From an uncultured Chloroflexia bacterium (GTDB taxonomy: Bacteria > Chloroflexota > Limnocylindria > Limnocylindrales > CSP1-4): 64,000 nucleotides of DNA. The position numbers and the translations under genes were made by a program. The notes below the pieces were generated by a model that worked only from the letters and a program-made list of their open reading frames with translations, did no database searches and had not been told where the DNA came from. Below, in pieces: positions 3,891-32,998 of this stretch (position 1 is the stretch's first letter; each line of letters starts with the position of its first letter). The DNA is taken from positions 1,152,418 through 1,216,417 of the forward strand of contig OY970149.1 of NCBI GenBank assembly GCA_963706095.1, read 5' to 3'.

Positions 3891-3900
3891 TCCGGGATTT

Positions 3901-6716: not shown

Positions 6717-6730
6717 AGCGCCCCGGTCCG

Positions 6731-8340
<1,610 letters not shown>

Positions 8341-8368
8341 GTTGCCGGTCCTCCGTCCTCAGCGCGGC

Positions 8369-8385
8369 GTGCGCACTCTGCGCAC
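8369..8385. promoter_or_regulatory. Perfect 7-bp inverted repeat gtgcgca-ctc-tgcgcac about 30 bp upstream of the pckA start; candidate operator.
   Basis: Palindrome read directly from the sequence. Its position relative to pckA suggests regulation, but no binding factor can be assigned. Confidence 0.2.
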
Positions 8386-8662
8386 CTGCTCTCTGGCGGA
8401 CCGGCCGCGCGTCACCGGGGCGTCACTCGCAACGCGCATCCGGGAGTCGGCTTTCGCAGTTCGTCGGCTGCGAATTGTACGCCACGCGTCCAGCACCGAA
8501 ACGTAACCCGCCGCGCTGCAGCGTCTTTCACCCGCCAATCAGACCTGCCCGCCCGGCGCTATTTCGACGCACCCTCAGTGCCAATCTTCCAGAACTTCAG
8601 CCAGACCAAGCCTTATCAAGCGAATTGTGCGGATCGCCTGAGCCTGGCGACGGGCGCCGCGC

Positions 8663-9448
8663 TCAACCACGCTCAACGGACGCCCCGGATGGCCGCCGGA
8701 CGCGCATCGGGGTCGCGAAGGACTTCATAAGCCCTCCGTGGCTGAAGTTCGAGAAGAAGGAAGCCCCTGCAACTGACCCGGACGGATTTCGAAGCCAGCG
8801 CAGAAGGATGCGCGACTCCGTCGGCAGGGCCGCGCCGAACAGGTGGCCAAACCTGGCGAACCGAGCACGATTGGTGCTGCCCTCGGCGATGACCGACCAA
8901 GTCGCCACGGCGGCCGGCGACCAGCCCTGATGGTGACCGACTTGCAGGGCCAGCCGACTCTTGCGTCCGAGCACCGCCAACAACCCCTGTGGATCCACGA
9001 TTTCCGTCTTGAGCTCGATGACCAGCAACGTTCGACTCGGCGCGTGCCAGGCCAGCAGGTCGATCACACCGCGTTCCCCGTAGATCGAGAAAGACACCTC
9101 GGGCATTACCTGCCAACCCAACCCGACCAGGAAGGCCGTCACAGCTTCGCCCATCTGGTTGTGGCGGACGTTGATCAGCCGGTCGAGGTCGCCTCCTTGC
9201 CAGCGCAGCAACAAATCGAGGCGGGCATCCAACGCCAGCGCGATCGATCTCAGGCTATTCAAGGTGACTTTGCCAACGCGCCCACGCTCGACAGCCGACA
9301 CGAGGGCGGCGGAAACTCGCGCCCTATCGGCGAGGTCGATCTGGCGCCAACGTTTGCGGATGCGGAGTGCGCGGATCGCGGCGCCGACGCGCTGGTCTTC
9401 CATGCAGAGAAGATGGGGTCGAGCGCTTACCAGCGGCTTATCCATCAA
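8663..9448 (-). CDS. XRE-family HTH transcriptional regulator with uncharacterised C-terminal domain (contains a D...ELK motif). Paralog of 59421-60086.
   Basis: N-terminal HTH (IRALRIRKRWRQIDLADRARVSAALVSAVERG). C-terminal domain VIDLLAWHAPSRTLLVIELKTEIVDPQGLL aligns with the second regulator. The true start may be the internal Met (MEDQRV, ~9403). Confidence 0.6.
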   Translation of the reverse strand: MMDKPLVSARPHLLCMEDQRVGAAIRALRIRKRWRQIDLADRARVSAALVSAVERGRVGKVTLNSLRSIALALDARLDLLLRWQGGDLDRLINVRHNQMGEAVTAFLVGLGWQVMPEVSFSIYGERGVIDLLAWHAPSRTLLVIELKTEIVDPQGLLAVLGRKSRLALQVGHHQGWSPAAVATWSVIAEGSTNRARFARFGHLFGAALPTESRILLRWLRNPSGSVAGASFFSNFSHGGLMKSFATPMRVRRPSGASVERG

Positions 9449-9479
9449 TTCGCAACCGGTGGCAGACTGGCCGGGTTAG

Positions 9480-10469
9480 ATGAGCGTGAACAGCGAAACG
9501 AGAGCCGCACCGTCGGCAGACTGGCTCGTCTTCATCGCCCTCGGCTTCTTCTGGGGCAGCAGCTACCTGTTCATCAAGATCGGCGTCGAGGCCGGGCTGA
9601 CCCCCTTCACGCTCGTCACTCTGCGTCTGCTGGTCGGCCTGTTGCTGCTCGGCGCGGTCGTGCTTGCGGCCCGCGAGGCGCTTCCGCGCGTGCCCAGGAC
9701 CTACGGCCACCTCATTGTCATGGCCTTCTTCAGCGTGGCTTTGCCATTCACGTTGATCACCGTCGCCGAGCAACGGGTCGATTCCGCGCTCGCTGCGACT
9801 CTGACCGCGCCCGTGCCTATCTTCGTCATCCCGATCGCTGCGGTGATGCTCCGCGAGCGGATCACCCTGAACAAGATCTTTGGCGTCATCGTCGGCCTGC
9901 TCGGGGTGGCAGTGCTGATGAGCTTCGACCCTTCGCAGATCGGCAGCACAGACCTGACGCCGCAGCTCGCGCTGGTCGGCGCCGCGGCGTCGTACGCCTT
10001 CGGTGGCGTGTACGCACGCCGCTTCGTGCACGGCCAGAAGCCGATGATCACCTCATTCCTGCTGGTCCTGTTCGCCATGTTGATGTCGGCGGGAGCGGCT
10101 CTGATTACGGAGAGCCCGCTGGCTCAGATCGGCAGCCTGGGCGGGGAAGCGCTGTTCTCGGTCGTCTGGTTGGGGGTGTTCGGATCGGGCCTGGCCTACC
10201 TCGCGTTCTATCGGCTGCTCAATGCCTGGGGTCCGACGCGCACGTCGCTGGTCGCCTACACGCTGCCGATCTGGGGCATCGCCCTCGGGTTCCTGGTCCT
10301 GGGCGAAGCCATCACGTCCGGGCTCGTGGTAGGCACGGCGCTGGTCATAGCCGGCATCGCGTTCGTGAATGTCAGACCACAGGCGATCCTGATCCGTGCG
10401 CGCCAGCGCCGTGATCGCCTCGGTACGCCGCAGCGACCGACCGTCGATCCTCGGGCGGGGCCGCGCTAG
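9480..10469 (+). CDS. EamA/DMT-superfamily transporter.
   Basis: 329 aa, ~10 TM segments, duplicated EamA-like halves. Confidence 0.8.
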   Translation: MSVNSETRAAPSADWLVFIALGFFWGSSYLFIKIGVEAGLTPFTLVTLRLLVGLLLLGAVVLAAREALPRVPRTYGHLIVMAFFSVALPFTLITVAEQRVDSALAATLTAPVPIFVIPIAAVMLRERITLNKIFGVIVGLLGVAVLMSFDPSQIGSTDLTPQLALVGAAASYAFGGVYARRFVHGQKPMITSFLLVLFAMLMSAGAALITESPLAQIGSLGGEALFSVVWLGVFGSGLAYLAFYRLLNAWGPTRTSLVAYTLPIWGIALGFLVLGEAITSGLVVGTALVIAGIAFVNVRPQAILIRARQRRDRLGTPQRPTVDPRAGPR

Positions 10470-10530
10470 CCGCTCCATTGCCCGGGCGTCCTCCGGGAAA
10501 CTAGTTACATGGCGTGTTAGACTTTTGCCC

Positions 10531-11625
10531 ATGGCCAGAGCGACGACACCCACCGACTCAACGACCACCCGGCCGATCAGCCTGCGCGACCGACTGCGCG
10601 CCTGGGCCGAGATCATGCAGACGGCGAATCCACCGCAGACGCTGCCGCTCGACACGCTTGGCAAGTGGCTCGTGATGACGCGCGCCGCGGTGTTCCCGAT
10701 GACGATCTGGTCGGGCACGATCGGCCTGCTGGTGGCGGCCGAGGTTGCGCGCAACGGCGCCCCGATCACGATCAACTGGGCCGCGGCCATCCTGGCGATC
10801 GTGGGCATCGTCCTCGCCCACGCCGCCAACAACCTGATCAACGACTACTTCGACATGACCGGCGGCGTCGACACGGACGACTACGTCCGCGCGCTCTACG
10901 CGCCGCATCCGGTCTTGGCTGGTTGGGTTTCGAAGGCCACGCTGCGCAACGCGATCGTCGTTCTCACCTTCGTCGACGGGCTGATCATGCTCGCGCTCGC
11001 GGCGATGAGCCCACAGCCACTCCTGGTGATCGGTTTCGCCCTGGCTGGGCTGTTCCTGAGCGTCTTCTACGTGGCGCCACCGTTCAGCCTCAAGCGCCAC
11101 GGCCTGGGCGAGGTCGACGTCTTCCTGACGTGGGGGCCGCTCATGATCGGCGGCACGTACCTGGTCGCGACGGGGACGATCCCGCTATGGGTGATCGTCT
11201 TCTCGATCCCCTACGCCCTGTTGGTGACGAGCGTCCTTTTCGGCAAGCACATCGACAAGATCGTGCCCGACACCGCGCTCGGAATTCGCACGCTGCCCGT
11301 GATCCTGGGCGAGCGCCTCGCGCGCCGAACCGGCCAGGCGCTGATGATCCTCTTCTACCCTCTGGTGCTGCTCGCGGTGCTGGCCGGTTGGGTCGGCCCA
11401 TGGGTCGGACTGGCCGTGCTGGCCTTCCCCGAGCTGATGAGGACGCTGCGCTACTACAACGAGCCCAAGCCCGATTCGCCGCCGGACTGGTATCCCAAGC
11501 GCGGCTGGCCGCTGTGGTTCGTTGGCTTCGCGTTCCGCCACACGCGCCTGGCCGGCGGCCTGCTCACCCTGGGCCTGCTGATGAACGTGCTCATCCCGGT
11601 GACGCTGCCACTGCCCTGGCTCTAG
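10531..11625 (+). CDS. UbiA-family aromatic prenyltransferase (MenA/UbiA-like).
   Basis: NNLINDYFDMTGGVD matches the UbiA NDxxDxxxD motif. Polytopic membrane protein. Start chosen at ATG 10531. Confidence 0.8.
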   Translation: MARATTPTDSTTTRPISLRDRLRAWAEIMQTANPPQTLPLDTLGKWLVMTRAAVFPMTIWSGTIGLLVAAEVARNGAPITINWAAAILAIVGIVLAHAANNLINDYFDMTGGVDTDDYVRALYAPHPVLAGWVSKATLRNAIVVLTFVDGLIMLALAAMSPQPLLVIGFALAGLFLSVFYVAPPFSLKRHGLGEVDVFLTWGPLMIGGTYLVATGTIPLWVIVFSIPYALLVTSVLFGKHIDKIVPDTALGIRTLPVILGERLARRTGQALMILFYPLVLLAVLAGWVGPWVGLAVLAFPELMRTLRYYNEPKPDSPPDWYPKRGWPLWFVGFAFRHTRLAGGLLTLGLLMNVLIPVTLPLPWL

Positions 11626-12253
11626 GACGTCGTGCGGCGCGAGGCCGCGGCGCGTGTGCCCGGAGCGCTCGACGCCAGATTCCGCTTCAAACACACACCC
11701 CGGGCCACTTCGGGGCCAGCGGCGGGCCCTTACGGACGCCCTGCCCGCTCGACACGCGTGCGGACCACGCTAGGAATGGCGGCTGGAGGCTGATCAGACC
11801 CCCGACTGGCGGCTCGCAGGCTGAATAGCCCGGCGACCGGGGGCTCGGAGGCTGAACAGCGGGCGACCAGAGGCTGGTGCGCTGAACACCTCGGCCAAGC
11901 TGGTGATTCGGGTTCGAAAGCGGGCCGTGTGTGAGTTTGAAGCGGATTCTCGGGAAGCGGCGCGCTAGCTCGCGGATTCCATCGAGTTGGTGCAGCCAGC
12001 GTTCCAACGGACCGCGGACCGATTAAAACGGACCGCCGACCGATGCATTTGAAGAGTGAGGCGCCCAATTCGATGCTTCGCTGAGCGTGGTGGTGAGTCC
12101 GAAAGCGCCAGGACGGCCAGTCGCGAGCCTCCAAGGCTTATGCAGCGGTCCGTTGGAACGTCCAGCGGTTCACCCGCGCCGCAGCCGGGGGGCGGTTCAC
12201 CGCGCTGCAGCCAGGCTGACTCACGGCGGCCGGGGTAGGTCGTGCCGCGGGGG
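11626..12253. repeat. Repeat-dense non-coding region: an IR-bounded element with 4 x 31-bp iteron-like tandem repeats, followed by a second IR-bounded element.
   Basis: Inverted repeats cagattccgcttcaaacacacaccc (11677-11701) and gggccgtgtgtgagtttgaagcggattctcg (11922-11952). Four 31-bp units each starting ggctgaNcag at 11788, 11819, 11850, 11880. A second perfect IR ccgcggtccgttggaacg at 11998-12016 and 12139-12157. Confidence 0.5.
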
Positions 12254-12796
12254 CTAGCGGGGCCAGGTGGTTTCGAAGACGTACTCCAGGCCGTCTATCT
12301 CGTCCATCTGCTCGCCCACCTTGGCGAAGCCGAACTTGCCGATGAGTGCCAGCGACGCCCGGTTGCTCGGTGCCACCGACGCCACGAAGCGGGTCACGCC
12401 GTGCTTCGAGTGGGCCCAGTCGAACATTGCGCGGACGGCTTCGCTGGTCAGACCCTGGCGTCGGTAGCGGGGGTCGATGCCGTAGCCGATCTCGGCCCGG
12501 CCCTCCGCATCTGGGCGGCCGTGGAAGCCGATCGACCCGAGCGCGTGGCGCTTGCCCGAATCGTCGGCCAGGACGATCGCCCGGCCGAGCCACTCGCGCT
12601 CAGTAGGGTCGCGCTCGAGCTGGCCGAGCCGGTACGCGAGGAAATGCTTGAGCTGGGCGGGCATCCAGCGCGGCACCGTCGCCCCAACCTCACGCTCGGC
12701 CGTGGCAAAGTCGCGCCGCTGCAGGGCCTGCATGAAAGGCACGCTCATCGACACGAGCTCGAGCCGAGGCGTGCGGATCGTCTCGGGATCGGTCAA
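12254..12796 (-). CDS. GNAT family N-acetyltransferase (RimJ/RimL-like).
   Basis: 180 aa, acetyl-CoA binding motif RRQGLTSEAVRAMFDWA. Confidence 0.75.
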   Translation of the reverse strand: MTDPETIRTPRLELVSMSVPFMQALQRRDFATAEREVGATVPRWMPAQLKHFLAYRLGQLERDPTEREWLGRAIVLADDSGKRHALGSIGFHGRPDAEGRAEIGYGIDPRYRRQGLTSEAVRAMFDWAHSKHGVTRFVASVAPSNRASLALIGKFGFAKVGEQMDEIDGLEYVFETTWPR

Positions 12797-14211
12797 GCGG
12801 CGCGACCGCGATGTGCGAGGTACTCGAGCAGGTCCAGCTTGGTGACCACGCCGGCGGCGCGCCCTCGCTCGACCACGACGATGGCCGGCGCGCCGCCCGA
12901 CAGCAGTGCAAAGGCACTGTCGAGCGATTCAGGAGCATCAATCGTGGGCAGTGGCTTGTCCATGACCTCGCCCACTGTCCGTTCCACCACCGTGGGATCG
13001 CGATATGTGCGATCGAGCAGGCCTTTCTCGCTGACGCTACCCACCACATCTTCGATCGCATCGCCTTCCGGCGTTTCCGATACGGGCATCTGCGATATGC
13101 CATATAGCTGGAGCAGGTCGATTGCGGCACCGACGCGATCCGTCGTGCGAGCCAGGACCACGGAGGGCATCACCTCCGGCCGGTGGCCGTTGCGCAGCAC
13201 GTCGGCGACGCGACTCGTTTCGCCGGCCGTGCCCATGAGGCCGTTGATGCGCATCCACTCGTCGTTGTAGAGCTTCGAGAGGTAGTTGCGCCCGCCGTCG
13301 GGGAACATGACCACGATCACCTTGTCCTCGGCCTCGCCGGCGTCGATCAGCTCACGAGCGACGGTCAGGGTCGCGATCAGGGCCGTGCCACACGACTCGC
13401 CGGCGAGGATGCCCTCCTCTCGCGTGATCCGCCGCGCGGCCTGGAAGGCGTCGCGGTCCGAGACGCGGACCCAGCGGTCGACCATCTGCGGGTCGTACGT
13501 GCCCGGAAAGAAGTCCTCGCCGATGCCCTCGGTGAGGTACGGGCGCGCGACATCGCCGGACAAAACGCTGCCCTCCGGATCGCCGCCGACCATCACGATC
13601 GTGGGGTTCTGCTCCTTCAGATAGCGCCCCGTGCCGCTGATCGTTCCACCCGTCCCGGAGGCAACCACGAGGTGTGTGATCCGCCCCTCGGTCTGGCGCC
13701 ACAGCTCGGGGCCCGTGGTGCGGTAGTGCGCCTCGGGATTGTTCATGTTGGCGTACTGGTCGGGCTGAAAAGCGCCCGGGATATCTCGCGCCAGCCGTCG
13801 CGCAACCGAGTAGTAGGACTCGGGCGATTCGGGCTCGACGTTGGTCGGGCAGAGCACTACCTCCGCGCCGTATGCGCGCAGCAGCGCTTGCTTCTCGGCT
13901 GACTGCTTGTCGGCCATCACGAAGATGCAGCGGTAGCCCTTCAGGGCAGCGGCAATTGCCAATCCGTGCCCGGTATTGCCGGAGGTTGGCTCGATGATCG
14001 TGCCGCCCGGCTTGAGCAGTCCGTCGCGCTCGGCCGCTTCGATCATTGGCAGGCCGATGCGGTCCTTGACTGAGCCGCCGGGGTTGAGCATCTCGAGCTT
14101 GGCCAGGATCAGCGGCTGGCGCTCCAGTGGCCCGAGCTCGCGCGTGACCCGTGTCAGCCGGACCAGGGGTGTGTCGCCGACCAGCTCGAGGATCGACTCG
14201 GCGTAGTGCAT
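12793..14211 (-). CDS. cbs: Cystathionine beta-synthase (PLP domain plus CBS pair).
   Basis: N-terminal Trp-synthase-beta-like PLP domain (LNPGGSVKDRIG with PLP Lys, GNTG). C-terminal tandem CBS domains. 472 aa. Confidence 0.85.
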   Translation of the reverse strand: MHYAESILELVGDTPLVRLTRVTRELGPLERQPLILAKLEMLNPGGSVKDRIGLPMIEAAERDGLLKPGGTIIEPTSGNTGHGLAIAAALKGYRCIFVMADKQSAEKQALLRAYGAEVVLCPTNVEPESPESYYSVARRLARDIPGAFQPDQYANMNNPEAHYRTTGPELWRQTEGRITHLVVASGTGGTISGTGRYLKEQNPTIVMVGGDPEGSVLSGDVARPYLTEGIGEDFFPGTYDPQMVDRWVRVSDRDAFQAARRITREEGILAGESCGTALIATLTVARELIDAGEAEDKVIVVMFPDGGRNYLSKLYNDEWMRINGLMGTAGETSRVADVLRNGHRPEVMPSVVLARTTDRVGAAIDLLQLYGISQMPVSETPEGDAIEDVVGSVSEKGLLDRTYRDPTVVERTVGEVMDKPLPTIDAPESLDSAFALLSGGAPAIVVVERGRAAGVVTKLDLLEYLAHRGRAA

Positions 14212-14248
14212 CCGCGGCCGAGTATAGGTTGCGACTCGCGCGTATCCT

Positions 14249-17200
14249 CGGGCATCCGATGACCAGCACCGTTCCTGACGCCACGGCCCGGCTCGAGCAG
14301 CGCATCGCCAAGCTGGAGGCGGAGCTCGAGCGGCAGCGCCGTGCCGTGCGCGACCAGTCGGCCCTCTTCCGCATTGCTGCCTTGGCCAACGAGGCGGACG
14401 ACATGCGCACCTTCTACGAGGGCGTGCACGAGATCCTGCGCGGGCTGCTCTACGCCGAAAACATGTACGTGGCGCTCTACGACGAGGAGCGCCAGCTGAT
14501 CAGCTTCCCGTACTACGTCGACCAGGTCGACGTGGACGTTCCCGATGCTCGTCAGTGGGATCGCCTGGGGACGGGCCAGGCCTCAGGCGTTACTGGCTTC
14601 ATTCTCCGAACCGGACGGCTTCTCCACAATTCCTCGGCCGATTGGAGAACGCTGGTCGATTCGGGCGAGGTTTCAGATCTCGGAGCCGACGCGTCGGACT
14701 ACCTTGGCGTACCGCTCAAGACAAACGGACGCACGATCGGTGTGCTCGCCGTCCAGAACTACACGCCGGGGAGCGTGTACGACGAAGCCGATGAACAGCT
14801 CCTCGCCTTTGTCGCCGACCACATCGCGGCGGCCCTCGCCCGGACGCGTACGAATGCCGACCTGCGCCAGCGCAACGCCGCCCTGGCCATCGTCAACGAC
14901 GTCGGTCAGGGACTGGCCGAGCAGCTCGATCTGACCGCCGTGACCGAGCTGGTCGGCGAGCGACTGCACGGGACCTTCCCCGATATTGACCTCTTCGTCG
15001 CACTGTTCCATGCGAACACCAATCAGATCAGCTTCCCGTATGAGTTCGCCGACGGGGAGAGGATCCATACCGAACCCATATCGGCCGAGCGTGGCCTGAC
15101 GGCGACGGTGATCAAGACCCGCGCGCCGCTGCTGCTGCGCAACACGGACGAGCTCGAGGCTGCAGGCGCCCTGAGCATCGGCATCAAGAACCGGCATTCG
15201 TGGCTCGGAGTCCCGGTCTTCGGCGGGTCCGATGTGATCGGCGTGCTGGGCATGGAGAGCACCCAGCCCTACGCCTTTGACGAGGATGACGTGCGGCTGC
15301 TCTCGACGCTTGCTGCGAGCACCGGTGCCGCGCTGCGAAACGCGCGCCTCTTCGACGAGACCAACAGCCTCCTTGCGGAGACCACGCAGCGCAATGCCGA
15401 GCTGGCGATCGTCAACGAAGTCGGCCATGCGCTGGCGAAGCAGCTCGACCTGACGGCTGTGACGGAGCTCGTCGGTGAGCGCCTGCACGAAACCTTCCCG
15501 AACACAGAATCTCTTCGTGGCGCTCTACCACCCCCCGACTAACGAGATCAGCTTTCCCTATGAGGTCGCCGACGGCGAACGTCTGCGGACCGAGCCTATC
15601 TCGGCCGAATCAGGGCTGACCGCAACGGTCATCAGAAATCGCGCGCCCGTTCTCATCAGAAGCGAGGATGAGATGCGCGCGGCAGGTGCCATCGACATCG
15701 GAGGCGCGTTCAGTCAGTCGTGGCTGGGTGTGCCGATCCTCGCGGGCGAAGAGCTGATCGGCGTACTCGCGATGGAAAGCCCCGAGCCAAACGCCTTTGA
15801 CGAGGGCGACGTACGCCTCGTATCGACGCTTGCGGCGAGCACCGGTGCTGCGCTCCGCAACGCACGGCTGTTCGATGAGACGAGCCGGCTGCTCGCCGAA
15901 ACCGAGCAGCGCAACGCGGAGCTGGCCGTCATCAACGAGATCGGCGAGGCGCTAGCCAAACAGCTCGATTTCCAGGCCATCATCGATGCCGTAGGCGAGC
16001 GCGTCATGTCGATCTTCCAGGTCGATACCGGTTTTCTGGGGCTCTACCACGAAGCGTCGGAAACGCTGTCCATGGAATACGCGATCGATGTCGGTGAGCG
16101 CTACCGGGATCTCCCACCGGCCGCCCTGAATCTGCTGACAGGACCCGTGATTCGCTCACGCCGGCCCGTGCGCCTCGGCACGGCGGCCGAGGCCGAAGAG
16201 CTCAGCCCGATCATCATCGGAACAGATGTAGCCGAGTCATGGCTCGGCGTACCGATTCTGGCCGGCGACCGCGTGCTCGGCATGATCGCAATTGAGCGAC
16301 GGCCCAAGCACGCATTCAGTGAAGCCGACGAGCGGCTCCTGGCAACGATTGCCGCGAACGTTGGCGTCGCCCTCGAGAACGCGCGCCTCTTCGACGAGAC
16401 CAAGAGCCTGCTCGCGCAGACCGAGCAGCGCGCGTCGGAGCTGGCGATCATCAACGAGATCGGTGCCGCCCTGAGCGAGCAGCTCGAGTTCGAGGCGATC
16501 GTCGATCTGGTCGGCGAGCGGCTCGACGCAATGTTTAAAACCGAAAGCCTGTTCATCGGGCTCTTCGACGAGCCTACAAACATGATCTCGTTCCCGTACG
16601 AGGTCGACAGCGGGAAGCGCGTCCATGGCGACCCGATCGAGTTCGGCCAGGGCCTCTCGTCGCTGGTGCTCAGGGAGAAGCGCCCATTGAGGTTCGCCAC
16701 CCAGGCCGAACAGGCGGATCAGGGCGGCTTCATGGGAACCTATGTCGACGCTAACCCAGACGAGCACGAGCAAAACGAGTCGTGGCTGGGCGTGCCCATC
16801 ATGTCGGGCCGCAAGGCGATCGGACTCGTCGTCCTGGGCGAGCTCGAGCCGAACCACTTCACCGAAGCCGACGAGCGCCTGGTCGCGACGATCGCTGCGA
16901 ATCTCGGTGTAGCCCTCGAGAACGCGCGGCTGTTCGACGAAACGAGGAGTCTCCTCGCCCAAACGGAGCAGCGCAACGCCGAGCTGGCGGTCGTTAACGA
17001 GATCAGCGCAGCGCTCTCCAAGCAGCTCGACTTCAACGCGATCATCGAGGCCGTCGGCATCAAGCTGGGCGAAGTCCTTGGGTCGCAGGACATGTCGATC
17101 GGGATTGTGGATGAGAAGGCCGGTCTGATTCGGACGCCGTACTTCACGGAGGACGGCGTCCGCGACTTCGACGTTGAGCCGCTCGAGCTCGGAAAGGGCC

Positions 17201-20200
17201 TCAGCTCACGGATCCTGGCGACCGGTCAGTCGATCCGGATCGGCAGCCAGGAGGACGCCCAGGGATTGGGTGCCGTGTTTGTTGGCGATGTCGACGCCGA
17301 GTTCAAGCAATCCTTTCTTGGTGTGCCCATCCCGAGTGGCGACCGCTTCATGGGCGTGCTGTCAGTCGCGAAGTTGGAGCGCAACGCCTTCAGCGAGCGC
17401 GACGAACAACTCGTATCGACCGTCGCCGCGAGCATGGGCGTGGCGCTGGAGAACGCGCGCCTCTTCGGCGAGACGAAACGTCTACTCACCGAAACCGAGC
17501 AGCGTGCCTCCGAGCTTTCGATCATCAACGAGATCGGTGCGGCACTGGCCGAACAGCTCGATTTCGCGGCGATCGTCGATCTTGTCGGCGATCGACTGGT
17601 GGCGATGTTCCGGGCGCAGAGCTTCCGTATCGCCCTCTACGACCGCGCGACGAACATGATCGACAGCTCTTACGAGATCGTCGATGGGCGACGTGTTCAT
17701 TCCGACGCGTTCGCATTCGGTCCGGGCCTGACGTCGCAGGTTCTGAGCAGCAAGAAACCCCTTCGCCTGGGGACCTTCACCGAGCAGTCCGAGCTAGGCG
17801 GGTTCCTGCCCACTTATGTCGAGGACGACGATCTGTCGGACGACGTCGACGAGTCGTGGCTGGGCGTGCCCATCATGGCCGGACGCGAGGCGATCGGCGT
17901 GGTCGTCATCAGCGATCCAGCACCCAACAAGTTCAGCGAGGCCGACGAGCGGCTGGTTGCGACCATCGCCGCGAGCATGGGCGTGGCCCTCGAGAACGCC
18001 CGGTTGTTCGACGAGACGAAGCGCCTTCTCTCCGAAACGAACGAGCGTGCCGCCGAGCTGGCGATCATCAACAGCGTCCAGCAGGGCCTGGCAGCCAAGC
18101 TCGACATGCAGTCGATGTTCGAGCTCGTCGGCGAAAAGATCGCCGAGATCTTCGACGCGCCGACGATGTCGATCCTGACGTTCGACACCGAGCGCGAGGA
18201 GACGACCAATCGATTCGGGTTGGAGCGTGGCGTTCGCGACGAGGCCACGTACACCACCCCCATGAGCCCATTTGCGCGGCATCTGATCGAAACCGGCGAG
18301 CCGATCGTGGTCAATCGCGACATCCACGGCTGGCTCGACGAACACGGACTTACGGTCAGGGTCATCGGCGACGATCCCAAGTCGATGGTGTTCGCGCCGC
18401 TCGTACTGAACGGTCAGGTTGCCGGTGCGATCTCGTTACAGAACCTTGACCGCGAGGACGCGTTCAACGAATCCGACTTCCGCCTCTTGACCACCTTGGC
18501 AGCGAGCCTGAGCGTCGCGCTCGAAAACGCGCGACTGTTCGACGAAACGCAGCGCCTGCTGACCGAGACCAACGAGCGGGCGGCCGAGTTGGCGATCATC
18601 AACAGCGTCCAGGAAGGTCTCGCGTCGCAACTGGACATGCGCGCGATGTACGACCTCGTGGGCGACAAGATCGGCGAAATCTTCGACGCGCAGGTCGTGG
18701 TGATCATCTCCTACGACACCGCAAGCGACATCGCCCATTACCACTACATGCGCGAGCGCGGTGAGCGCTTCGGGCCGGTCGATGAATTGATCGACGAGCT
18801 CAGCAAGCAGGTGATTGCCACTCGCCAACCGGTACGGATCGCCGACCTCGGTGAATGGGAACGTGACAACGGAATTCACATTCCGATCGTTCAAGGAGAG
18901 CCAACCAAGTCGCTGTTGCTCGTGCCACTGCTGGCCGGCAGCGAAGTCGTAGGCGCGGTTTCCATTCAAAACGTTGATCACGTGGATGCTTTCAACGAGG
19001 GCGATCTGCGCCTGCTGGTCACGTTGGGATCGAGCCTGAGCGTTGCCCTCGAGAACGCGCGGCTTTTCGACGAGACACAGCGCCTGTTGACCGAAACCAA
19101 CGAGCGGGCCGCCGAGTTGGCAATCATCAACAGCGTCCAGGAAGGCCTCGCTGCAAAGCTCGAGATGCAGTCGATGTACGAGCTCGTTGGCGACAAGATC
19201 CGCGAGATATTCGACGCCCAGGTTGTTGTGGTGTCGCTGTTCGACACTGAGGCTCAGACGGCGACATACCCGTACGTGCACGAGCGTGGCGCTCGCCTGG
19301 AGCCTACTGAGTCGCCGCTGGGTATCGGCGATCGGCTGCTCATCGATACGGGCGAGACCGTGCTGATCAATGACCTTGCGGCATGGGAGGCCGAGACCGG
19401 CCTCGAGCTCCCCGTCATCGAGGGCGAGGCGGTGAAATCGATCGTAGCCGTGCCCTTGCTGGTGGATGGTTCCGTCTACGGAGCCTTGGCCCTCCAGAAC
19501 ATCGATCGAACCAACGCCTTCTCAGACTCCGACGTTCGCCTGCTGACAACGCTCACCTCGAGTCTCAGCGTGGCCCTGGAAAACGCGCGGCTGTTTGCTG
19601 AGACGCAGCGGCTGCTCCAAGAGACGAACGAGCGGGCCGCCGAGCTGGCAATCATCAACAGCGTCCAGGAGGGCCTCGCTGCAAAGCTCGAGATGCAGTC
19701 GATGTACGACCTGGTGGGCGACAAGATCCAGGAGATCTTCGACGCGCAGGTCGTCACGATCGCCATCTACGACTTCGATGCCGAGCTCAGTCTCTATCCG
19801 TATTCGTTCGAGAGAGGCAAGAAGGCGCCAGGCGGGAACGAGTCGACGCCGATTACGGACAACACGAGGCGGATGCTCGCCCTTTACCAGACCGGCAAGC
19901 CGGTGGTGATCGACAACTACGAGGAGTTCGAAGAACAGACGGGTATCAAGTTCACCATCAGCGGCGAGCCATCCAAGTCGATGGTGTTCGCGCCGCTCAG
20001 CACCGGCGGCAAGGTCTTCGGCCGCATCTCGCTTCAGAACCTCGATCGCTATTCGGCCTTCAGCGAATCGGACGTGCGCCTGATCACGACCCTCGCCGGC
20101 AGCCTGAGCGTGGCGCTCGAAAACGCACGGCTGTTTGACGAGACGCAGCGCCTCCTGACCGAGACGAACGAGCGCGCTGCCGAATTGCAGATCATCACCA

Positions 20201-23200
20201 GCGTCCAGCAGGGGCTTGCGGCCAAGCTCGATATGCAGTCGATGTATGAGCTCGTGGGCAACAAGCTGGTGGAGATCTTCGGTTCGCAGGTCGTGGACAT
20301 CGCCGTCGTTGACGCCGCTGACGGCAAGATCCATTTCCCGTTCGCGGTCGAGCGCGGCGAGCGCCTCGACGACTACCCGATCGACCTGATCGGCTTCCGC
20401 CGCCATGTCCTCGAAACACGCGAGCCGCTGGTCATCGACCGCGACGTGCCAGCCCAGGCCGAGGCGTACGGGAACCCCGAGCATCTGGAGGGCGAGACGC
20501 CCAAGTCCGCCGTGTTCGTGCCCATGGTCAGCGGTGGCGTCACGGGCGTCCTCTCGCTCCAGAGCATCGACCGCGCGGATGCGTTCAGCGCGTCCGATGT
20601 GCGCCTGTTGACGACTCTCGCCTCGAGCCTGACCGTGGCCCTCGAAAACGCGCGGCTCTTCGACGAGACGCAGCGTCTGCTTAATGAGACGAACGAACGC
20701 GCCGCCGAGCTGGCGATCATCAACAGCGTGCAGGAGGGCCTCGCAGCCCAGCTCGACATGCAGTCGATGTACGACCTCGTCGGCGACAAGATCCAGGAGA
20801 TATTCGACGCCCAGGTGGTCGACATCGGGCTGTACGACTTCGAATCGGAAACCGTCAATTTCCCTTACACGATCGAGCGAGGAGAACGATTCCCGGATAC
20901 TCCGGCGCCATTCACCGACGCTACCCGCGACGTGATCAACGCCAAGAAGCCCGTACTCATCCCCGATGTTGACGCCGACAATGCTCTACGCGGAACCGAG
21001 CCGATGATCGTCGGCGAGAGGCCGCAGTCGATTGTCATGGCGCCGCTGATCTCGGGCGACCGCGTCTTCGGGCGAATCTCGCTCCAGAACCTTGACCGCA
21101 CGCACGCCTTCAGCGAGGCGGACGTCCGGCTGCTGACTACTCTCGCTGCCAGCCTGAGCGTCGCCCTCGAGAACGCGCGGCTCGTCGACGAAACCCGCCA
21201 GCGTGCAGCCGACCTCGCAATCGTCAACGAGGTCGGTCAGGCCGCCGCAGCACAGCTTGACCTCACGCGACTCATGCCGCTCGTTGGCGACAAGATGCGT
21301 GCCACTTTCGACGCGGATATCGTCTATCTCGCGCTCTACGATCGAGAGGCAGGTCGTATCTCGTTCCCGTACTACGCCGAGGACGGTGAGCACGTCCCCT
21401 CGGCTGATATTCAGTTCGGCGAGGGCCTGACCTCACGCATCATCTCGGCGCGCGAGCCTGTGGTCATGAACCAGCCCTGGCAGTTCGAGTCCCTGGGAAT
21501 CCCAGTGCTGGGCAGAGAGGCGAAGTCGTACCTGGGCGTGCCGATCATGGTCGCCGACCAACCGATAGGCGTGATCAGCGTTCAGAGCTCGACCGACTAC
21601 GGTCGGTTCGGCGATTCCGACGTTCGCCTGCTTTCGACCATCGCTTCGAGCATCGGGACCGCGATCCAGAACGCGCGTCTGTACAGCGAATCACAACGCC
21701 GCGGGTCGGAGATGGCAGCCCTCGCGGATGTGGGCCGAGAGATCTCCGCCACCCTCGAGCTGTCCTCCGTCCTGCAGCGCATAGTCGAGCGTGCTCAGAC
21801 CCTGTTGGGCGGTACCGCGAGCGCGGTGTTCCTGCCCGGTGCGGACGGCGGCGATACATTCCGCGCCACTGCCGCCGCCGGCGATATCGCAGAGCAGCTC
21901 AAGCAGATGAAGGTCGTCCGGGGCACGGGCATCATCGGCAGCCTTGCCGCCGAGGGACAGCCCGAGGTGATCAACGATGTCAACGCCGATCCACGCGGCG
22001 TCCAGATCGAGGGCACACCGGCCAACGAAGAGGAGCGGCTGATCGTTGCGCCGCTGCTCGGCCGCGGGGGCGTCAACGGCATGATGGCCGTCTGGCGGAC
22101 TGGCCCCGACACCCAGCCATTCACTGCGGCTGACCTGGCCTTTCTCGTCGGACTCTCGCAACAGGCCGCGATCGCGATCGACAACGCGACCCTCTTCGCC
22201 GAGCTCGCGCGACGCGCGTGAGGTTGCCGACACGGCCAATCAGGCCAAGAGCGCCTTCCTCGCGGCGATGAGCCACGAGATCAGGACGCCCATGAACGCG
22301 ATCATCGGCATGAGCGGCCTGCTGTCTGAGACCGAGCTCGACGCCGAGCAGCGCGACTACGCCGACACGATCCGCTCATCAGGCGACGCGCTGCTGACGA
22401 TCATCAACGACATCCTCGACTTCTCGAAGATCGAGGCCGGCAAGGTCGACCTGGACGCCGAGCCATTCAGCGTCTCTGACTGCGTCGAGAGCGCGCTCGA
22501 CGTCATTGCCCCGGCGGCGGCGGCGAAGGGCGTCGAGCTCGCATACGAGGTCGAGGGCGAGCTTCCGCCGGCCGTCGTCGGCGACATGGGCCGGCTGCGC
22601 CAGATCCTGCTCAACCTGCTTTCTAACGCGGTCAAGTTCACCGAGCGCGGCGAGGTGCTGGTGTCGGTCAGCAGCGCGGTCGTCGGCAGCGAGGTCGAGC
22701 TTCGGGTGATGGTCAAGGACACCGGCATCGGCATCCCCAAGGAGCAGATGAGCCGGCTCTTCCAATCGTTCAGCCAGGCAGATTCGTCCATCGCGCGGCG
22801 CTACGGCGGCACGGGTCTTGGTCTTGCGATCAGCCGCCGCTTGGCCGAGGCGATGGATGGCTCCCTGACGGCCCAGAGCAAGGGCGTCCCGGGCAAGGGC
22901 TCGACATTCAACCTGACGGTCAAGCTGCCCGCGGCGACCGATGTCCAGCTGCCGGCCGTGCCGGTGCGCCGGCCGGTCGACGTCGGCGGCAAGTCAGCGC
23001 TGATCGTGGACGACAACGCGACCAACCGGCGCATCCTGTCGGCGCAGCTGGCGCGCTGGTCGATCACCGTGCGCGACACAGCCTCGCCGGAAGAGGCGCT
23101 GCGCTGGATCCGCGACGGCGAGCAGTTCGACGTGTGCCTGCTCGACCTGTTCATGCCGGGCATGGACGGTGTCGCCCTGGCCGAAGCGATCCGCGTCGCG

Positions 23201-23797
23201 CGGCCGAAAGATACGCCGCGTCTGATCCTGGTCTCGTCTGCCGCGATGCGCGAACACGGCGCGGCCGTTGATGAGCTCCTGCCAAAGCCGGTCAAGCCGT
23301 CGGCGCTCTACGACGCGCTGGTGAACGTCTTCTCGGCGCCCGACACGCGCATGCCGCTTCAGCGGGCACCTGACCTCGCGTCCGACCCGCAGCTTGCAGC
23401 ACGCCACCCTCTGCGCATCCTGCTAGCCGAGGACAACGCTGTGAACCAGAAGCTTGCCCTGCGACTGCTGGCGAACATGGGCTACGCCGCCGATGTCGCG
23501 AGCGACGGCCTGCAGGCGATCGCCGCCCTGGAAGGATCCGACCACGACGTGGTGCTGATGGACGTCCAGATGCCCGAGCTCGACGGCCTGGAGGCGACGC
23601 GCCGGATCCGCTCGCAGTGGCCCGATCGGCCGCTGCACATCGTCGCCATGACCGCCAATGCCATGGCCGGTGATCGAGAGGCGTGTCTCGCCGCGGGCAT
23701 GAACGACTATGTCAGCAAGCCAATCCGGCCGGCCGAGCTGGCCGCTGCGCTGCAGCGCGCGCCGGCCACGTCAGCAATGGAGGTGATCGAAAAGTGA
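14249..23797 (+). CDS. Giant multi-GAF hybrid sensor histidine kinase: about 15 tandem GAF domains, then HisKA, HATPase_c and two receiver domains. Single-nt frameshifts at about 15520 and 22220.
   Basis: Three ORFs concatenate with 1-nt corrections: 14151-15542, 15475-22221 (2248 aa) and 22268-23797. The recurring module WLGVPI...[34 protein letters not shown] occurs about 15 times. An H-box ([17 protein letters not shown]), N/G boxes and two DD...D...K receiver domains follow. Confidence 0.8.
17800..21180 (+). repeat. Intragenic tandem repeats of ~535 bp (6 near-identical GAF-linker units) inside the giant kinase gene.
   Basis: Protein segments [39 protein letters not shown](E/D)MQSMY(E/D)[14 protein letters not shown] recur at about 18000, 18530, 19060, 19590, 20120 and 20650. 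Confidence 0.7.
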
Positions 23798-24155
23798 CCG
23801 ACCAGCCACCGATCATCGACCAGCAGGTGCTCGATGAGCTGCGCGCGTCCGTCGGCGGCGACGACGCGTTCGTGGCCGAGCTGTGTGCCACCTACGTGAC
23901 CGAGGGCGCCGAGCACATGTCGCAGATCGAGGCCGCGGCCGCCGCGGGCGACGTCGAGGCCATCGTGCGGCCGGCTCACTCACTCAAGTCGAGCAGTGCA
24001 TCGCTCGGCGCGGCGCGCATCTCGGCATCAGCCGCGAGATCGAGCTGGCGGGCCGCGAGGGCCGCTCGGAGGAGATGACAGACCTGGTCGCAGCGGCGCG
24101 CGCGGCCTGGGACGAGACGGTCAAAGAGCTGCGCGCGCGCAAGCTGTCGCCGTGA
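23794..24155 (+). CDS. Hpt (histidine phosphotransfer) domain protein. Its start overlaps the kinase stop (GTGA). Frameshift near 24020.
   Basis: [21 protein letters not shown] contains the HxxKG-like phosphoacceptor His. The C-terminal half [35 protein letters not shown] is in a second frame. Confidence 0.65.
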
Positions 24156-25285
24156 CCGAATCGGCCGTGGCGCTCGTCGTCGACGACAGCGCGGTCAACA
24201 GGATGCTGCTGTCGCGCCATCTCGCGTCAATGGGCATCGGCGCGCGCGAGGCCGCGGACGGGCGATCAGCGCTGGAGACGCTGCGCGAGTCGGTCGATGA
24301 CGATCGCGGTCGTCCTGCTCGACGTGATGATGCCCGAGATGGACGGCTACGAGACTCTGGCCGCCATCAAGTCCGACGACGCGCTGCGCCACGTGCCGGT
24401 GATCATGATCTCGGGCGTCGATGAGCTCGACAGCGTCGCGCGCTGCATCGAGCTGGGAGCGACCGACTACCTGCCCAAGCCGTTCAACCCGGTCATCCTC
24501 GGCGCGCGCGTCCGTGCCTCGCTGGCGGACAAGCGCATGCGCGACCTCGAGCTGGCGCATGCCGCGCAGCAACAGGCGCTGCTCGAGACGATCGAGCGCC
24601 AGAAGGACGAGCTCTCGCGCTTCCTGTCACCGCAGGTCGCGGCTCTGGTCTCCAGCCCGGAGGGCGAGCAGCTCCTGGCCGGCCATCGGCGCCTGGCGAC
24701 GGCGGTGTTCTGCGACCTGCGCGGCTTCACGAACTTCAGCGACTCGGCCGAGCCCGAGGAGGTGCTCAGCCTGCTGCGCGAGTACCACGCGCCGATGGGC
24801 GAGCTGATCGTCGAGTACGGCGGCACGCTCGAGCACTTCGCGGGCGACGGGATGATGGTCTTCTTCAACGATCCCGTGCTCCAGGAGGACCACGTCGCGC
24901 GCGCCGTGCGCATGTCCGTGGCGATGCGCGCAGATGTTCGGCGGCCTGGCTACGCGCTGGTCGAAGCTGGGCTTCGAGCTGGGTCTGGGCATCGGCATTG
25001 CGACCGGCTACGCCACGCTCGGCCGGATCGGCTTCGAGGGCCGCTACGACTACGGCATGGTCGGCACGGCCGTCATCGTCGCGTCACGCCTCAGCTCCGC
25101 GGCCGAGGCAAACCAGATCCTGCTCAACCCACGGGCTCACGTCGAGGTGGAATGAGCTCGTCCGTGTCGAGGAGGTCGGTGAGCTGCCGCTCAAGGGCTT
25201 CGCGCGCCCGATCCCGACCGTCAACGTCACTGCTCTGATTGAGACAGCTCTGGCCGAGCCTGCGCTCGCGCGCGCCGATCGCTGA
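24152..25285 (+). CDS. Response regulator with class III adenylate/guanylate cyclase output domain. At least three single-nt frameshifts (~24300, ~24935, ~25150).
   Basis: The GTG start overlaps the Hpt stop. The receiver is ALVVDDSAVNRMLL...VVLLDVMMPEMDGYETLAAIK...PVIMISG. The cyclase domain is AVFCDLRGFTNFSD...HFAGDGMMVFFN...LGIGIATGYATLGRIG...GTAVIVASRL across three frames. Confidence 0.7.
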
Positions 25286-26251
25286 TCAGTGCCGAGAGGC
25301 GTAGTCCTCGGTGTCGAGGTCGGATGGCGGCACGAGATCGGCTGAGGGCTCGAGATCGGCTGTGGGCTCGGTATCGGGTGGCGGCTCACCGTCATGCGCG
25401 GGTGGCGTCCACGGCGGCGGGTAGTCGTAGGGCTTGGTGTCGCGCCGGCCGTGGTTCCAGATCAGGATCACGAGGCCGATCATGATCACCAGGAAGCCCA
25501 CGATCTGGGCCGTGGCAATGCCGCCCAGGGTCCAGTTCCAGCCACTGCGGAATGGCTCCAGCACGATCCGCGTGGCGCCGTACCAGATGCCCCAAAAGGC
25601 GACTAGGTCGCCCGGCTGGAGCCGGTGCAGCATGCGGCGCGATAGGTACAGGACGATGAACCCGCCCAGGATGTTGAGCGCGGACTCGTAGAAGAAGAGC
25701 GGGTGGAAGCCGGTCGTCGCCTCGGGAAAGAGCGAGCAGGGGTACTGGGCGACGCGATGGGCGCAGTCGATGGCGATGCCCCACGGCACGTCGGTCGGTG
25801 GCCCGTACAGCTCCTGGTTGAAGAAGTTGCCCCAGCGCGCGATCCCCTGGGCGAAGAGCGTGCCCGCGATGACCGAATCCAGCGACAGCGGTAACGACAA
25901 CTTTTTCCAGCGCGTATAGATGAAGATGCCGAGCGCCGCACCGGCGATGCCGCCATACAGGCCGAGCCCGGAATACGGCGGCAGGATGGCGCTGATCGGG
26001 TTCTGGCTGTAGATCTGTCCCCATTGATCGATGACGTGGTACAGACGGCCACCGATCAACGCGATGACGGCGACCATGAGCAGGGCGCCGAACGCATGCG
26101 CCGGGTCGATGCCGCGGCGTGCGAGCTCCGTCTGCGTGACCAGCAGCAGCACGCCGATGCCGATCACGTAGCCCACGCCATACCAGCCGATGCCCAGCGG
26201 ACCGAGCATGACGATGTTCGGATCCGGCGTAATCGGGATCAGCGGGAACAC
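25286..26251 (-). CDS. lgt: Prolipoprotein diacylglyceryl transferase with Pro/acid-rich C-terminal tail.
   Basis: GPLGIGWYGVGYVIG N-terminus and GGRLYHV, GNFFNQELYG motifs typical of Lgt. Confidence 0.85.
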   Translation of the reverse strand: MFPLIPITPDPNIVMLGPLGIGWYGVGYVIGIGVLLLVTQTELARRGIDPAHAFGALLMVAVIALIGGRLYHVIDQWGQIYSQNPISAILPPYSGLGLYGGIAGAALGIFIYTRWKKLSLPLSLDSVIAGTLFAQGIARWGNFFNQELYGPPTDVPWGIAIDCAHRVAQYPCSLFPEATTGFHPLFFYESALNILGGFIVLYLSRRMLHRLQPGDLVAFWGIWYGATRIVLEPFRSGWNWTLGGIATAQIVGFLVIMIGLVILIWNHGRRDTKPYDYPPPWTPPAHDGEPPPDTEPTADLEPSADLVPPSDLDTEDYASRH

Positions 26252-31313: not shown

Positions 31314-31689
31314 CGGGGATGTGGCCCTCAGGCAGCTCGAGCGAGATGTGGTCACCCTCGATGGAAACCGGATAGACCTGTAGCGGCAGCTCCGCCGGCG
31401 GGTCTAGCGCGTCGCCTGTCTGGAGATCGAAGCGCGACAGGTGCAGCGCGCAGGTCAGGGTGTCGCCGGTCAGGAAGCCCTTGTCGAGCTCGAAGTACTC
31501 GTGTGAGCAGACGCCCTGGGTCGCCCGGATCTTGCCGTCGAGGTTGACCAGCAGGATGTCCGTGGCGTCCACCTGGACCATCAGCATCGTCCCGGCAGGG
31601 ATCTCGTCGAGCCGCGCGACGGGCACCAGCCGCGTCGCCGGCGAGTCGGTCACGCCGCTTGCGTCGTTGGCACGGACTCGTTCGGCCAC
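31303..31689 (-). CDS. Rieske [2Fe-2S] domain protein, last gene of the suf cluster.
   Basis: CSHEY...(17 aa)...CALHLSRF, the Rieske CxH / CxxH ligands. 128 aa. Confidence 0.75.
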   Translation of the reverse strand: MAERVRANDASGVTDSPATRLVPVARLDEIPAGTMLMVQVDATDILLVNLDGKIRATQGVCSHEYFELDKGFLTGDTLTCALHLSRFDLQTGDALDPPAELPLQVYPVSIEGDHISLELPEGHIPVNE

Positions 31690-32998
31690 TTCTCCTCGAG
31701 CAGCTGCCGCAGCCGGTCCTGCGCCTCGCCCAGCGGGATGCGTGCGACGACCGGCTCGAGGAATCCGAGCACGATGAATTTGCGCGCAACATCGCGCGGG
31801 ATGCCGCGGCTCATCAGGTAGAAGATCTCGTTCTCGTCGATCGGGCCGACGCTGCTCGCGTGCGCGGCACGACGGACGTCAGGCTGGTCGATCTCCAGGC
31901 TGGGGATGGTCACGCTGCGTGACTGCTTGTTGAGCAGCATCGCGAACTCACCAAGGAAGCTGTCCGTGCCGGTCGCCGAGCGCTCTATATCGATCATGCC
32001 CTTGAAGTAGCCACGGGCACGATCGAGGAACACGCCCTTGGACAGCAGGTCGCCGGTCGTGTCCTTGCCGATGTGGCGCGTGTAGCTGGTCAGGTCGAAT
32101 AGCTGCCGGCCATCCCCGAAGCCGATCTCGACCTGGCTGACGCTCGAGCCACGGCCGACTAACAGGTTGTCGATCCGGCTCTTGTGCAGCTCCCCGCCGA
32201 CGCTGGCCAGGGCCCAGCTGAGGTGTGCCTCCTGCTCAAGCGTCGCGTGCCGACTGACGAACGCGAGGGTGCGCGGGCCAAAGTCCTGCTGACCGGCAAA
32301 GGAGAGGTTCGCGCCGCGCGCGAGGTTCGACCTCTGCCGTGCCCCACCACAGGCTCTGCTTCTCGTCAGCGGCGGCTTCGTCGGCGCGAGTCGTTACCTG
32401 CTCTTCGAGGATCCTGGCCTGGGCGTTCTCGCCGAGGTTGACGACCGTGCGCGACACGAAGCCGCGACCGGCTTCGCCACACCCCCAGCGGACGACGACG
32501 GGCTGCTCGAGAACGACGTTGCGTGGCACGTGGAGGACAGATTCCGACGCCGAAGTGACTGCGCGCGAACTGCGCGAACTTGTCGTCCGCGGGCAGGCTC
32601 TTGCCACCCACGAGGGCCTCTCGGAGCAGCTCCGGCCTCTCTCTCAGGACGTTGGCAAAGGTGTCAAGTACAACGCCGGCCTGACGCGCCTGGTCGGACA
32701 GGGCGCGGGCAACGACTCGACCTTCGGCGACCTCGATGAGCGCGGCGGCGCCTTCCGGCACGACCTCACCGACATGCGCCGCGTCCCCGCTCTCGAGGTA
32801 GGGCTCGATGTCCTCCCATTTCGCGGCCCTCAGGTCGACGTACAACGTGAAGAGGTTGTTCGTCTCGATGGGCAGCTCGTTGTAGGCAGCCAGAGCGGCG
32901 AGTCGGTCGGCCAGCAGCCAGTCGGGCTCGCCTTGCGACGTGGAGATTCGGCGAACGATCTCTTCGCCCGCGAAGGGCAGGTTCAGTGAGGCCGCCAT
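31650..32998 (-). CDS. sufD: Fe-S cluster assembly protein SufD, at least two single-nt frameshifts (~32280, ~32560).
   Basis: Three frames hold the N-terminus (MAASLNLPF...), the middle (VLHVPRNVVLEQPVVVRW...TVVNLGENAQARILEEQ) and the C-terminus (...GRGSSVSQVEIGF...[23 protein letters not shown]). Confidence 0.7.

Follow-up and report, generated by a model that had tools for sequence, protein, structure and literature searches.

A poly-GAF histidine kinase, an Hpt protein and a receiver-cyclase: a predicted phosphorelay cassette in a Chloroflexota genome

The closest described relative of the system considered here is CyaC of the cyanobacteria Spirulina platensis and Anabaena, a type IIIb adenylate cyclase that also carries receiver, GAF, histidine-kinase and receiver domains. 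According to the summary of the experiments in PMC3009899, CyaC couples the histidine kinase and GAF domains to a IIIb-like cyclase, and the Spirulina enzyme is activated by phosphorylation of the receiver adjacent to the cyclase. Also related are the multistep relays of the free-Hpt type (LuxU in Vibrio, HptB in Pseudomonas aeruginosa, Ypd1 in yeast), in which a hybrid kinase passes the phosphoryl group to a separate Hpt protein and from there to a response regulator. Here we describe a three-gene cassette on the plus strand of a 64,000-nucleotide (nt) stretch of DNA from an uncultured Chloroflexia bacterium (Limnocylindria; assembly GCA_963706095.1, contig OY970149.1, positions 1,152,418 to 1,216,417; hereafter the window, to which all coordinates refer). 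The cassette encodes a hybrid histidine kinase with 15 GAF units, an Hpt protein, and a receiver fused to a class III cyclase-homology domain. As in CyaC, the second substrate residue of the cyclase is Thr. Unlike CyaC, which is one polypeptide with a His-to-Asp step, two GAFs and no Hpt, the cassette has three proteins, a predicted four-step relay and 15 GAFs, and its cyclase has His where Lys is canonical and Ile where Asn is. It also differs from the free-Hpt relays in that its terminal regulator bears a cyclase domain, not a DNA-binding or anti-anti-sigma output.

The region encodes an uncharacterised variant of a known signalling scheme, and cassettes of this kind are widespread in soil bacteria. 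As deposited, the three genes appear as about nine open reading frame (ORF) fragments, long plus-strand ORFs in changing frames between 14.2 and 25.3 kb. We consider it probable from the sequence that they make up one copy of a conserved, self-contained signalling cassette that works in the organism and owes its breaks to the assembly alone.

Gene lengths are given below after repair of six single-base frame breaks; L and P numbers denote loci and proteins of relatives. The kinase gene (14259-23797; ORFs, Pfam, alignment to intact homologues) encodes 3,179 residues and lies in three frames as deposited. Its start is the ATG at 14259, where residue 1 of the intact homologue P0122 aligns. The array of 15 GAF units (14259-22216) is followed by a connector helix with HisKA and HATPase_c (22218-22930; Pfam) and by two receivers, REC1 and REC2 (22982-23752; Pfam Response_reg in two stretches, 7.7e-46). 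The Hpt gene (23794-24155) encodes 120 residues from a GTG start and was delimited by Pfam, by tblastn against the Hpt of L001, L002 and L081, and by DNA alignment. The receiver-cyclase gene (24152-25285; 376 residues; Pfam, tblastn, DNA alignment to the intact L081 and L082) comprises the receiver (~24170-24520), a coiled coil with a cyclase transducer element (~24530-24690) and the cyclase domain (~24690-25230). The kinase stop and the Hpt start overlap in a GTGA at 23794-23797, and the Hpt stop and the receiver-cyclase start in another at 24152-24155. A Shine-Dalgarno-like run, GGAGGTGA, lies upstream of the Hpt start. The overlapping starts are kept in relatives, with 4-nt overlaps between the cassette genes in L081 and L082. 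An initial annotation of this DNA had described three consecutive plus-strand genes joined by GTGA overlaps: a kinase of about 3,180 residues with about 15 GAF domains, HisKA-HATPase and two receivers, an Hpt protein of about 120 residues, and a receiver fused to a class III cyclase domain. That description is accurate apart from the start codon, since the repaired lengths, the Pfam domains (Response_reg and Guanylate_cyc in the third gene) and both overlaps were confirmed; its span had the right gene content but began at 14249, about 10 nt off.

In the deposited frames, Pfam finds two GAF domains and part of a third in ORF 14151-15542, 13 GAF domains in ORF 15475-22221, and HisKA, HATPase_c and two Response_reg domains in ORF 22268-23797. 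The Hpt domain is divided between ORFs 23683-24078 and 23883-24155, and the terminal Response_reg between ORFs 23996-24424 and 24297-25238. The latter ORF also carries a partial Guanylate_cyc, the rest of that domain lying in two other frames. A promoter and terminator scan of the operon gave no promoter-like sites and only weak, intragenic hairpins, and Rfam and tRNA scans gave no RNA gene within it; the sole RNA gene detected in the window is a tRNA-Gly(CCC) at 52308-52383 on the minus strand.

Every residue required by the His-Asp-His-Asp relay that was predicted initially is present in the kinase, the three receivers and the Hpt protein. In the kinase, HisKA (Pfam 6.5e-20) has the H-box SHEIRTPMN with its phospho-accepting His, and HATPase_c (1.7e-28) has the N, G1, F and G2 motifs, including GGTGLGLAI. 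Read from the translation, REC1 (~22982-23326) has a DD acidic pocket, the phospho-Asp, VSS and PKP, and REC2 (~23417-23752) has an ED pocket, the phospho-Asp, MTA and SKP. The Hpt domain is matched at 6.6e-11 on the fragment and at 7e-16 (L001) and 1e-12 (L002) on intact orthologues, and its motif AHSLKSSS provides the conserved His of H-x-x-K-(G/S). The Hpt models of LuxU, TorS and ArcB match it weakly; all NCBIfam matches fall far below their cut-offs, so none of the named Hpt proteins is its orthologue. The terminal receiver, after repair of the break at 24292, reads VVDDS...LLDVMMPEMDG...MISG...PKP and has all canonical residues; in intact orthologues Pfam matches it at 1.6e-25 to 2.8e-25.

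The six frame breaks fall in the kinase (~15500-15508 and 22206), the Hpt gene (~24024) and the receiver-cyclase gene (24292, 24931 and 25153). Alignment to intact relatives identifies those at 22206, 24292, 24931 and 25153 as one-base insertions and that at 24024 as a one-base deletion; P0122 aligns across ~15500-15508, and L001, L081 and L082 align across 22206. The need for correction of single-nucleotide indels had been anticipated, and all six are placed by these alignments. The breaks sit in the deposited assembly, because a fragment ORF is itself called as a protein in the public record. They are not confined to the cassette. A codon-usage Viterbi pass over the whole window pointed to further same-strand frame switches, which were checked by translation and Pfam. 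A beta-eliminating lyase gene (tryptophanase-like; 1864-3305, plus strand) is divided by a break at ~2425-2450. In pckA (PEPCK_ATP; 6731-8358, minus strand), a break at ~7358 puts profile positions 4-303 and 305-465 in different frames. Compared with two intact syntenic relatives, sufD (31650-32998, minus strand) has two extra bases, at 32538 and 32325, and sufB (33000-34416, minus strand) has one, at 33517. Single-base breaks in four housekeeping-type genes point to a window-wide consensus-error problem in the assembly. The two syntenic relatives are L081 and L082, on contigs of 2.4 and 1.5 Mb, which share with the window the order PEPCK, EamA, acetyltransferase, CBS, kinase, Hpt, receiver-cyclase and LGT, onward to Rieske, SufD and SufB, and in which all shared genes are intact. 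Since the same type of break occurs in sufB, sufD, pckA and the lyase gene, and the syntenic relatives are intact, assembly error is likelier than gene decay, and we regard it as the likely cause.

The distribution of the breaks does weigh against this reading in some respects. Four of them lie within the 1.5 kb that the Hpt and cyclase genes together span, and none in 11 neighbouring syntenic genes; with three more in the suf genes, they are clustered in a way that a purely random error model would not predict. Homopolymers were considered as the cause and are not supported by the sequence contexts, so the classic signature of long-read error is missing. These same facts, six breaks in 11 kb with four in the last 1.5 kb, unbroken neighbours and sites outside homopolymers, are what would favour a real pseudogene, with all six frameshifts present in the organism and the cassette being lost. 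We think this improbable, because it would have to go with the joint loss of housekeeping genes broken by the same single-base insertions (sufB, sufD twice, pckA, the lyase), which is implausible; decay specific to the operon is unsupported for the same reason. Nor does a decaying operon sit well with the absence of in-frame stops from the cassette frame segments, with the retention of all phosphorelay residues, or with the identity to intact orthologues, which is 87% across all frame segments (receiver-cyclase against the intact P0001, over 99% of its length). The HisKA-REC-REC part of the kinase is 64% identical to that of L001. Several breaks lie in or beside GCGC/CGCG runs (22190-22235, 24005-24050, 24915-24960, 7335-7385, 32300-32350), and such contexts suggest a systematic consensus base-calling error, which may be related to methylation. 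The pseudogene reading that the initial annotation had left open is thus unlikely given the window-wide breaks and the intact relatives.

Fragmentation is seen elsewhere too. In L027 (4957-11875), which comes from a long-read metagenome bin, the kinase lies in six or more ORF fragments, so other public assemblies of the poly-GAF kinase family are fragmented as well. Within the window, two adjacent small membrane-protein ORFs at 39816-40219 on the minus strand lie in different frames (78 and 88 residues stop to stop); these may represent two genes or a single gene with another frameshift.

The cassette is a mobile, self-contained module. When species-representative genomes were searched with the HisKA-REC-REC part of the kinase, 80 loci were listed, the source genome not among them; the best locus among the matches listed is 64% identical to that part. 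The cassette recurs intact, as a multi-GAF kinase gene followed by Hpt and receiver-cyclase genes, at about 22 of the 80 loci listed. Carriers belong to the Chloroflexota, the Gaiellales and other Actinomycetota, the Alpha- and Betaproteobacteria (including the isolate Pelomonas sp. V22) and the Binatia. The coupling of a phosphorelay to a cyclase, initially held to be atypical, therefore recurs in several phyla. In the syntenic L081 and L082 the cassette is intact, which bears out the operon conservation that had been proposed as a check. The number of GAF units varies with the locus, being 10 in L001, 5 in L002, 13 in L010 and at least 19 in L055; in L001, L002 and L055, the kinase is followed by Hpt and receiver-cyclase. 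In the protein database there are 1,883 kinase homologues at E <= 1e-50, and the best 119 of these carry 7-24 GAF units, reach 5,151 residues and are labelled only 'GAF domain-containing protein'. Fifteen GAFs is accordingly a high but ordinary number for the poly-GAF kinase family, and not the atypical one it was first taken to be. The system appears to be uncharacterised, as had been supposed, in that a literature search found no description of poly-GAF kinases, of Hpt-to-cyclase relays or of the three-gene cassette. All-against-all clustering of 23 loci gave no conserved fourth gene, such as one for a cyclic-nucleotide receptor or a phosphodiesterase, beside the cassette, a result made noisy by spurious overlapping ORFs in high-GC DNA, and a Pfam scan of window ORFs gave no cyclic-nucleotide-binding protein.

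In Pelomonas sp. V22 (L007, 1744-13348), the kinase is spread over two ORFs that overlap and differ in frame (1744-6084 with 5 GAFs, 5945-13348 with 10 GAFs), followed by Hpt and receiver-cyclase genes; this is either another frameshift or two genes, and the strain, a cultured isolate, is tractable for genetics. PAS or TPR domains, or both, accompany the array in some poly-GAF kinases of 3,100-5,150 residues, and an Hpt domain is fused to some of them (P0127, P0137, P0139, P0144, P0153). The poly-GAF array thus occurs together with sensor modules of other kinds.

Cutting the repaired kinase at a recurring linker motif gives 15 GAF units of 163-204 residues, and a profile built from units 2-14 gives the same count. 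The assignment also rests on direct-repeat families, a unit identity matrix, Pfam (GAF, GAF_2, GAF_3) and an AlphaFold model of units 8-9. From repeat and linker-motif analysis, units 1-8 start at 14259, 14868, 15387, 15907, 16426, 16969, 17500 and 18043, and units 9-15 at 18574, 19102, 19630, 20170, 20695, 21199 and 21688, all on the plus strand. Units 2-7 and 8-13 form two sub-blocks, and units 1, 14 and 15 are divergent. The direct repeats are spaced at 498-543 nt with 60-82% DNA identity, and the proteins of units 2-14 are 30-72% identical to one another. Tandem Repeats Finder reported no array across the GAF units. This null result and the divergence of the DNA rule out a collapsed or expanded repeat, the assembly artefact that had been suggested as a test of the array. 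In six relatives of the kinase at about 51-63% identity (P0156, the kinase of L081; P0186, the kinase of L082; P0123, P0125, P0122 and P0132), there are 9 to 16 GAF units. Among these the end units keep their position, and the middle block differs in the number of units.

No Cys was found in any of the 15 GAF units, so the chromophore-binding Cys of the bilin type is absent, and no transmembrane segment was found in the kinase. The kinase is therefore a cytoplasmic sensor, neither an array of bilin photoreceptors nor a thiol switch, and the predicted signal for its GAF array is intracellular and neither bilin- nor thiol-based. An F-x3-D-E motif occurs in no units other than 4-7 and 9, and in units 4-7 it opens the last GAF helix. 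In unit 7 (~17940-17965) it forms part of a contiguous NKFSEADE that resembles the NKFDE of cyclic-nucleotide-binding GAFs. The NKFDE-like units 4-7 offer a lead, in that they hint at possible feedback from the product of the cyclase.

The units are joined by connectors that are the most conserved part of each. In the AlphaFold model of units 8-9 (pLDDT 83), one continuous 52-residue helix joins the two GAF folds, and equivalent helices stand at both ends. The nearest solved folds to this modelled pair are the tandem GAFs of PDE5, PDE2, PDE6 and CyaB2. Like the GAF-A/GAF-B modules of PDE2, PDE5, PDE6 and Anabaena CyaB2 (3ibj, 3lfv, 1ykd), which are dimers with two GAFs on a long connecting helix, the cassette array has its GAFs on long helices; unlike them, it has 15 GAFs and not two, it is only 13-18% identical, and NKFDE is not conserved in its units. 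Of the 13 inter-GAF linkers of the window, 11 measure 44 residues from the ENARL motif to the LVG motif and one measures 37. The same two lengths recur in homologues, with 609 cases of 44 and 280 of 37, and they differ by exactly one heptad. Such lengths are what a register-dependent coiled-coil spine running to the DHp helix would lead one to expect, and they suggest a dimeric coiled-coil rod along which a signal would be carried to that helix. The connectors in part recall the S-helix, a parallel coiled coil of about 40 residues with a central ERT signature (Anantharaman, Balaji and Aravind 2006, PMC1592074). They are conserved coiled-coil-type helices of about 40-50 residues between signalling domains and have a central ER(A/N), as NERAAEL or EQRNAEL, with an Asn-rich core, and so have Ala or Asn for the Thr of the ERT signature that marks the S-helix. 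According to that work, inter-GAF coiled coils lacked any conserved pattern (PMC1592074), whereas in the cassette the connectors are the best conserved part.

The array could be mainly a structural rod, serving as spacer, scaffold or cooperative mechanical element instead of as 15 independent ligand sensors; we hold this to be possible but doubtful. It would fit the pattern of conservation, in which helices and connectors, of heptad-quantised length, change least, while substitutions fall mostly, and indels entirely, in the pocket region. It would also fit the free variation in unit number, from 9 to 16 among the relatives named above, two syntenic orthologues included, and the lack of any conserved known ligand motif, with no Cys and F-x3-D-E in some units only. 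GAF domains in kinases are, however, generally sensors of ligands or cofactors. Every unit moreover keeps a complete GAF fold, and units at matching positions are up to 73-76% identical between orthologues, which indicates that individual units are under selection.

At the output end, the receiver leads through a helix of about 45 residues to a transducer-like segment, SRFLSPQVAALV, and then to the cyclase domain. This segment, which resembles a cyclase transducer element, aligns with the FGRYL element of Cya2 (6fht; SRFLSPQV against FGRYLTDQV; PMC5995499). Pfam PF00211 matches the cyclase domain on the fragment, and at 5e-16 on the L001 orthologue. The best solved match is P. aeruginosa CyaB (3r5g, E 6e-36), with which the metal-binding Asp pair, the Thr and the Arg align; in CyaB the Lys and Asn are the canonical ones, and control is by a membrane MASE2 domain, not a receiver. 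Four of the six canonical class III residues are kept in the cassette cyclase. Both metal-binding Asp residues (FCDLRGFT and FAGDG) and the Arg of the transition-state pair are found in 120/120 close homologues, and the second substrate residue (GIATGY) is a Thr of the class IIIb type, with Thr in 105 and Ser in 12 of the 120 homologues. The invariant metal ligands and Arg argue for catalysis, and a cyclic AMP (cAMP) or cyclic GMP (cGMP) output of the receiver-cyclase is plausible.

The remaining two residues weigh against such an output. His (TLEHFAGDG) replaces the purine-selecting Lys (or Glu), and Ile (VIVASRL) replaces the transition-state Asn, both in 120/120 close homologues. A second clade of cassettes keeps the Asn and has Gln, Leu or Asn where the Lys would be; none of the cassette cyclases compared has the canonical Lys or Glu at the first substrate position. 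The relay might therefore be real and end elsewhere than in a cAMP/cGMP cyclase, either in a dead domain that signals by protein contacts or in an enzyme with another nucleotide substrate or product. We hold this to be possible but less likely than not. A dead domain would hardly explain the invariant metal Asp pair and Arg and the IIIb-type Thr. Models of PycC, the Pycsar pyrimidine cyclase, match the domain at 2e-19, about as well as generic class III models do, which could be read as a sign of a different nucleotide. Such matches are nonetheless expected among class III cyclases, and the adjacent genes include no Pycsar effector. Membership of a Pycsar system was accordingly rejected, the neighbours being the kinase, Hpt and LGT and the PycC match a generic class III cross-hit.

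Class III enzymes can nonetheless work without the canonical Asn or without the Lys, as the non-canonical mycobacterial cyclases Ma1120, Rv0386 and Rv1900c show. In Mycobacterium tuberculosis Rv0386, which is active as a cyclase, Gln occupies the position of the Lys. None of the three is known to have the His/Ile pair or receiver control. Ma1120 is an active class III cyclase with Ala at the Asn position (PMC4215837), so the change from Asn to Ile is no proof of inactivity. As regards the initial prediction of cAMP/cGMP synthesis, the cyclase homology and the metal Asp, Thr and Arg residues stand behind it, and the replaced substrate Lys and Asn leave the product in doubt. The loss of catalytic residues that would have spoken against it is partial, two of the six being replaced (Lys to His, Asn to Ile) and four kept.

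From conserved residues and gene order, we infer the following mechanism for the cassette. The hybrid kinase would be a soluble dimer with its 15 GAF domains on a continuous helical spine, and the state of these domains would travel along the coiled coil to the HisKA/DHp helix and there set autophosphorylation. The His of the kinase would hand the phosphoryl group to the Asp of one of the kinase's own receivers, probably REC2, which is of the usual relay type. The group would then move to the His of the 120-residue Hpt protein and end on the Asp of the receiver-cyclase. The phosphorylated receiver would, through the ~45-residue helical linker and the cyclase transducer element, reposition the dimeric class III cyclase domain. 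A cyclic nucleotide is the most likely product, though its identity is in doubt, given the non-canonical residues for substrate recognition. In this scheme phosphotransfer, dimerisation, ligand binding and catalysis are in every case predictions. Taken as a whole, the initial interpretation holds for the relay, which the sequence supports; its rarity was overstated, and the cAMP/cGMP output is uncertain. A bolder version, which we put forward as speculation and judge distinctly unlikely, is that poly-GAF kinases are cytoplasmic rod receptors, with up to 24 GAF beads on a register-keeping coiled coil acting as a cooperative or integrating sensor. In these the fast-changing number of units would set the sensitivity, and the receiver-cyclase would make a signal other than cAMP or cGMP or select its substrate in a new way.

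Downstream of the cassette, an 18-nt tandem repeat (25314-25387; 78% matches over 4.1 copies) falls within the 3' end of lgt on the minus strand, where it encodes a repetitive acidic and proline-containing C-terminal tail. LGT has 321 residues in the window and 291 and 345 in the syntenic relatives. Two further plus-strand genes, both unrelated to the cassette, encode a Castor/Pollux-type RCK ion-channel homologue (42073-43932) and an 865-residue NlpC/P60 protein with a CBM96 module (44059-46656).

In the source assembly, the cassette genes are annotated as fragments, probably owing to consensus errors, and they call for repair, not for a pseudogene label. Soil lineages that have been little studied (Limnocylindria and other Chloroflexota, Gaiellales, Binatia) carry the cassette in abundance, and it occurs in Proteobacteria as well. 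If the reading given here is true, the cassette would connect second-messenger synthesis, by way of a full His-Asp-His-Asp relay, with the largest arrays known for a common sensory domain. The interest lies mainly in the very long, register-preserving GAF rods and in the conserved non-canonical cyclase. The heptad-quantised connectors would offer a natural system for the study of how signals travel along a very long coiled coil and how sensor units are gained and lost, and the invariant His/Ile variant poses a defined question for cyclase enzymology.

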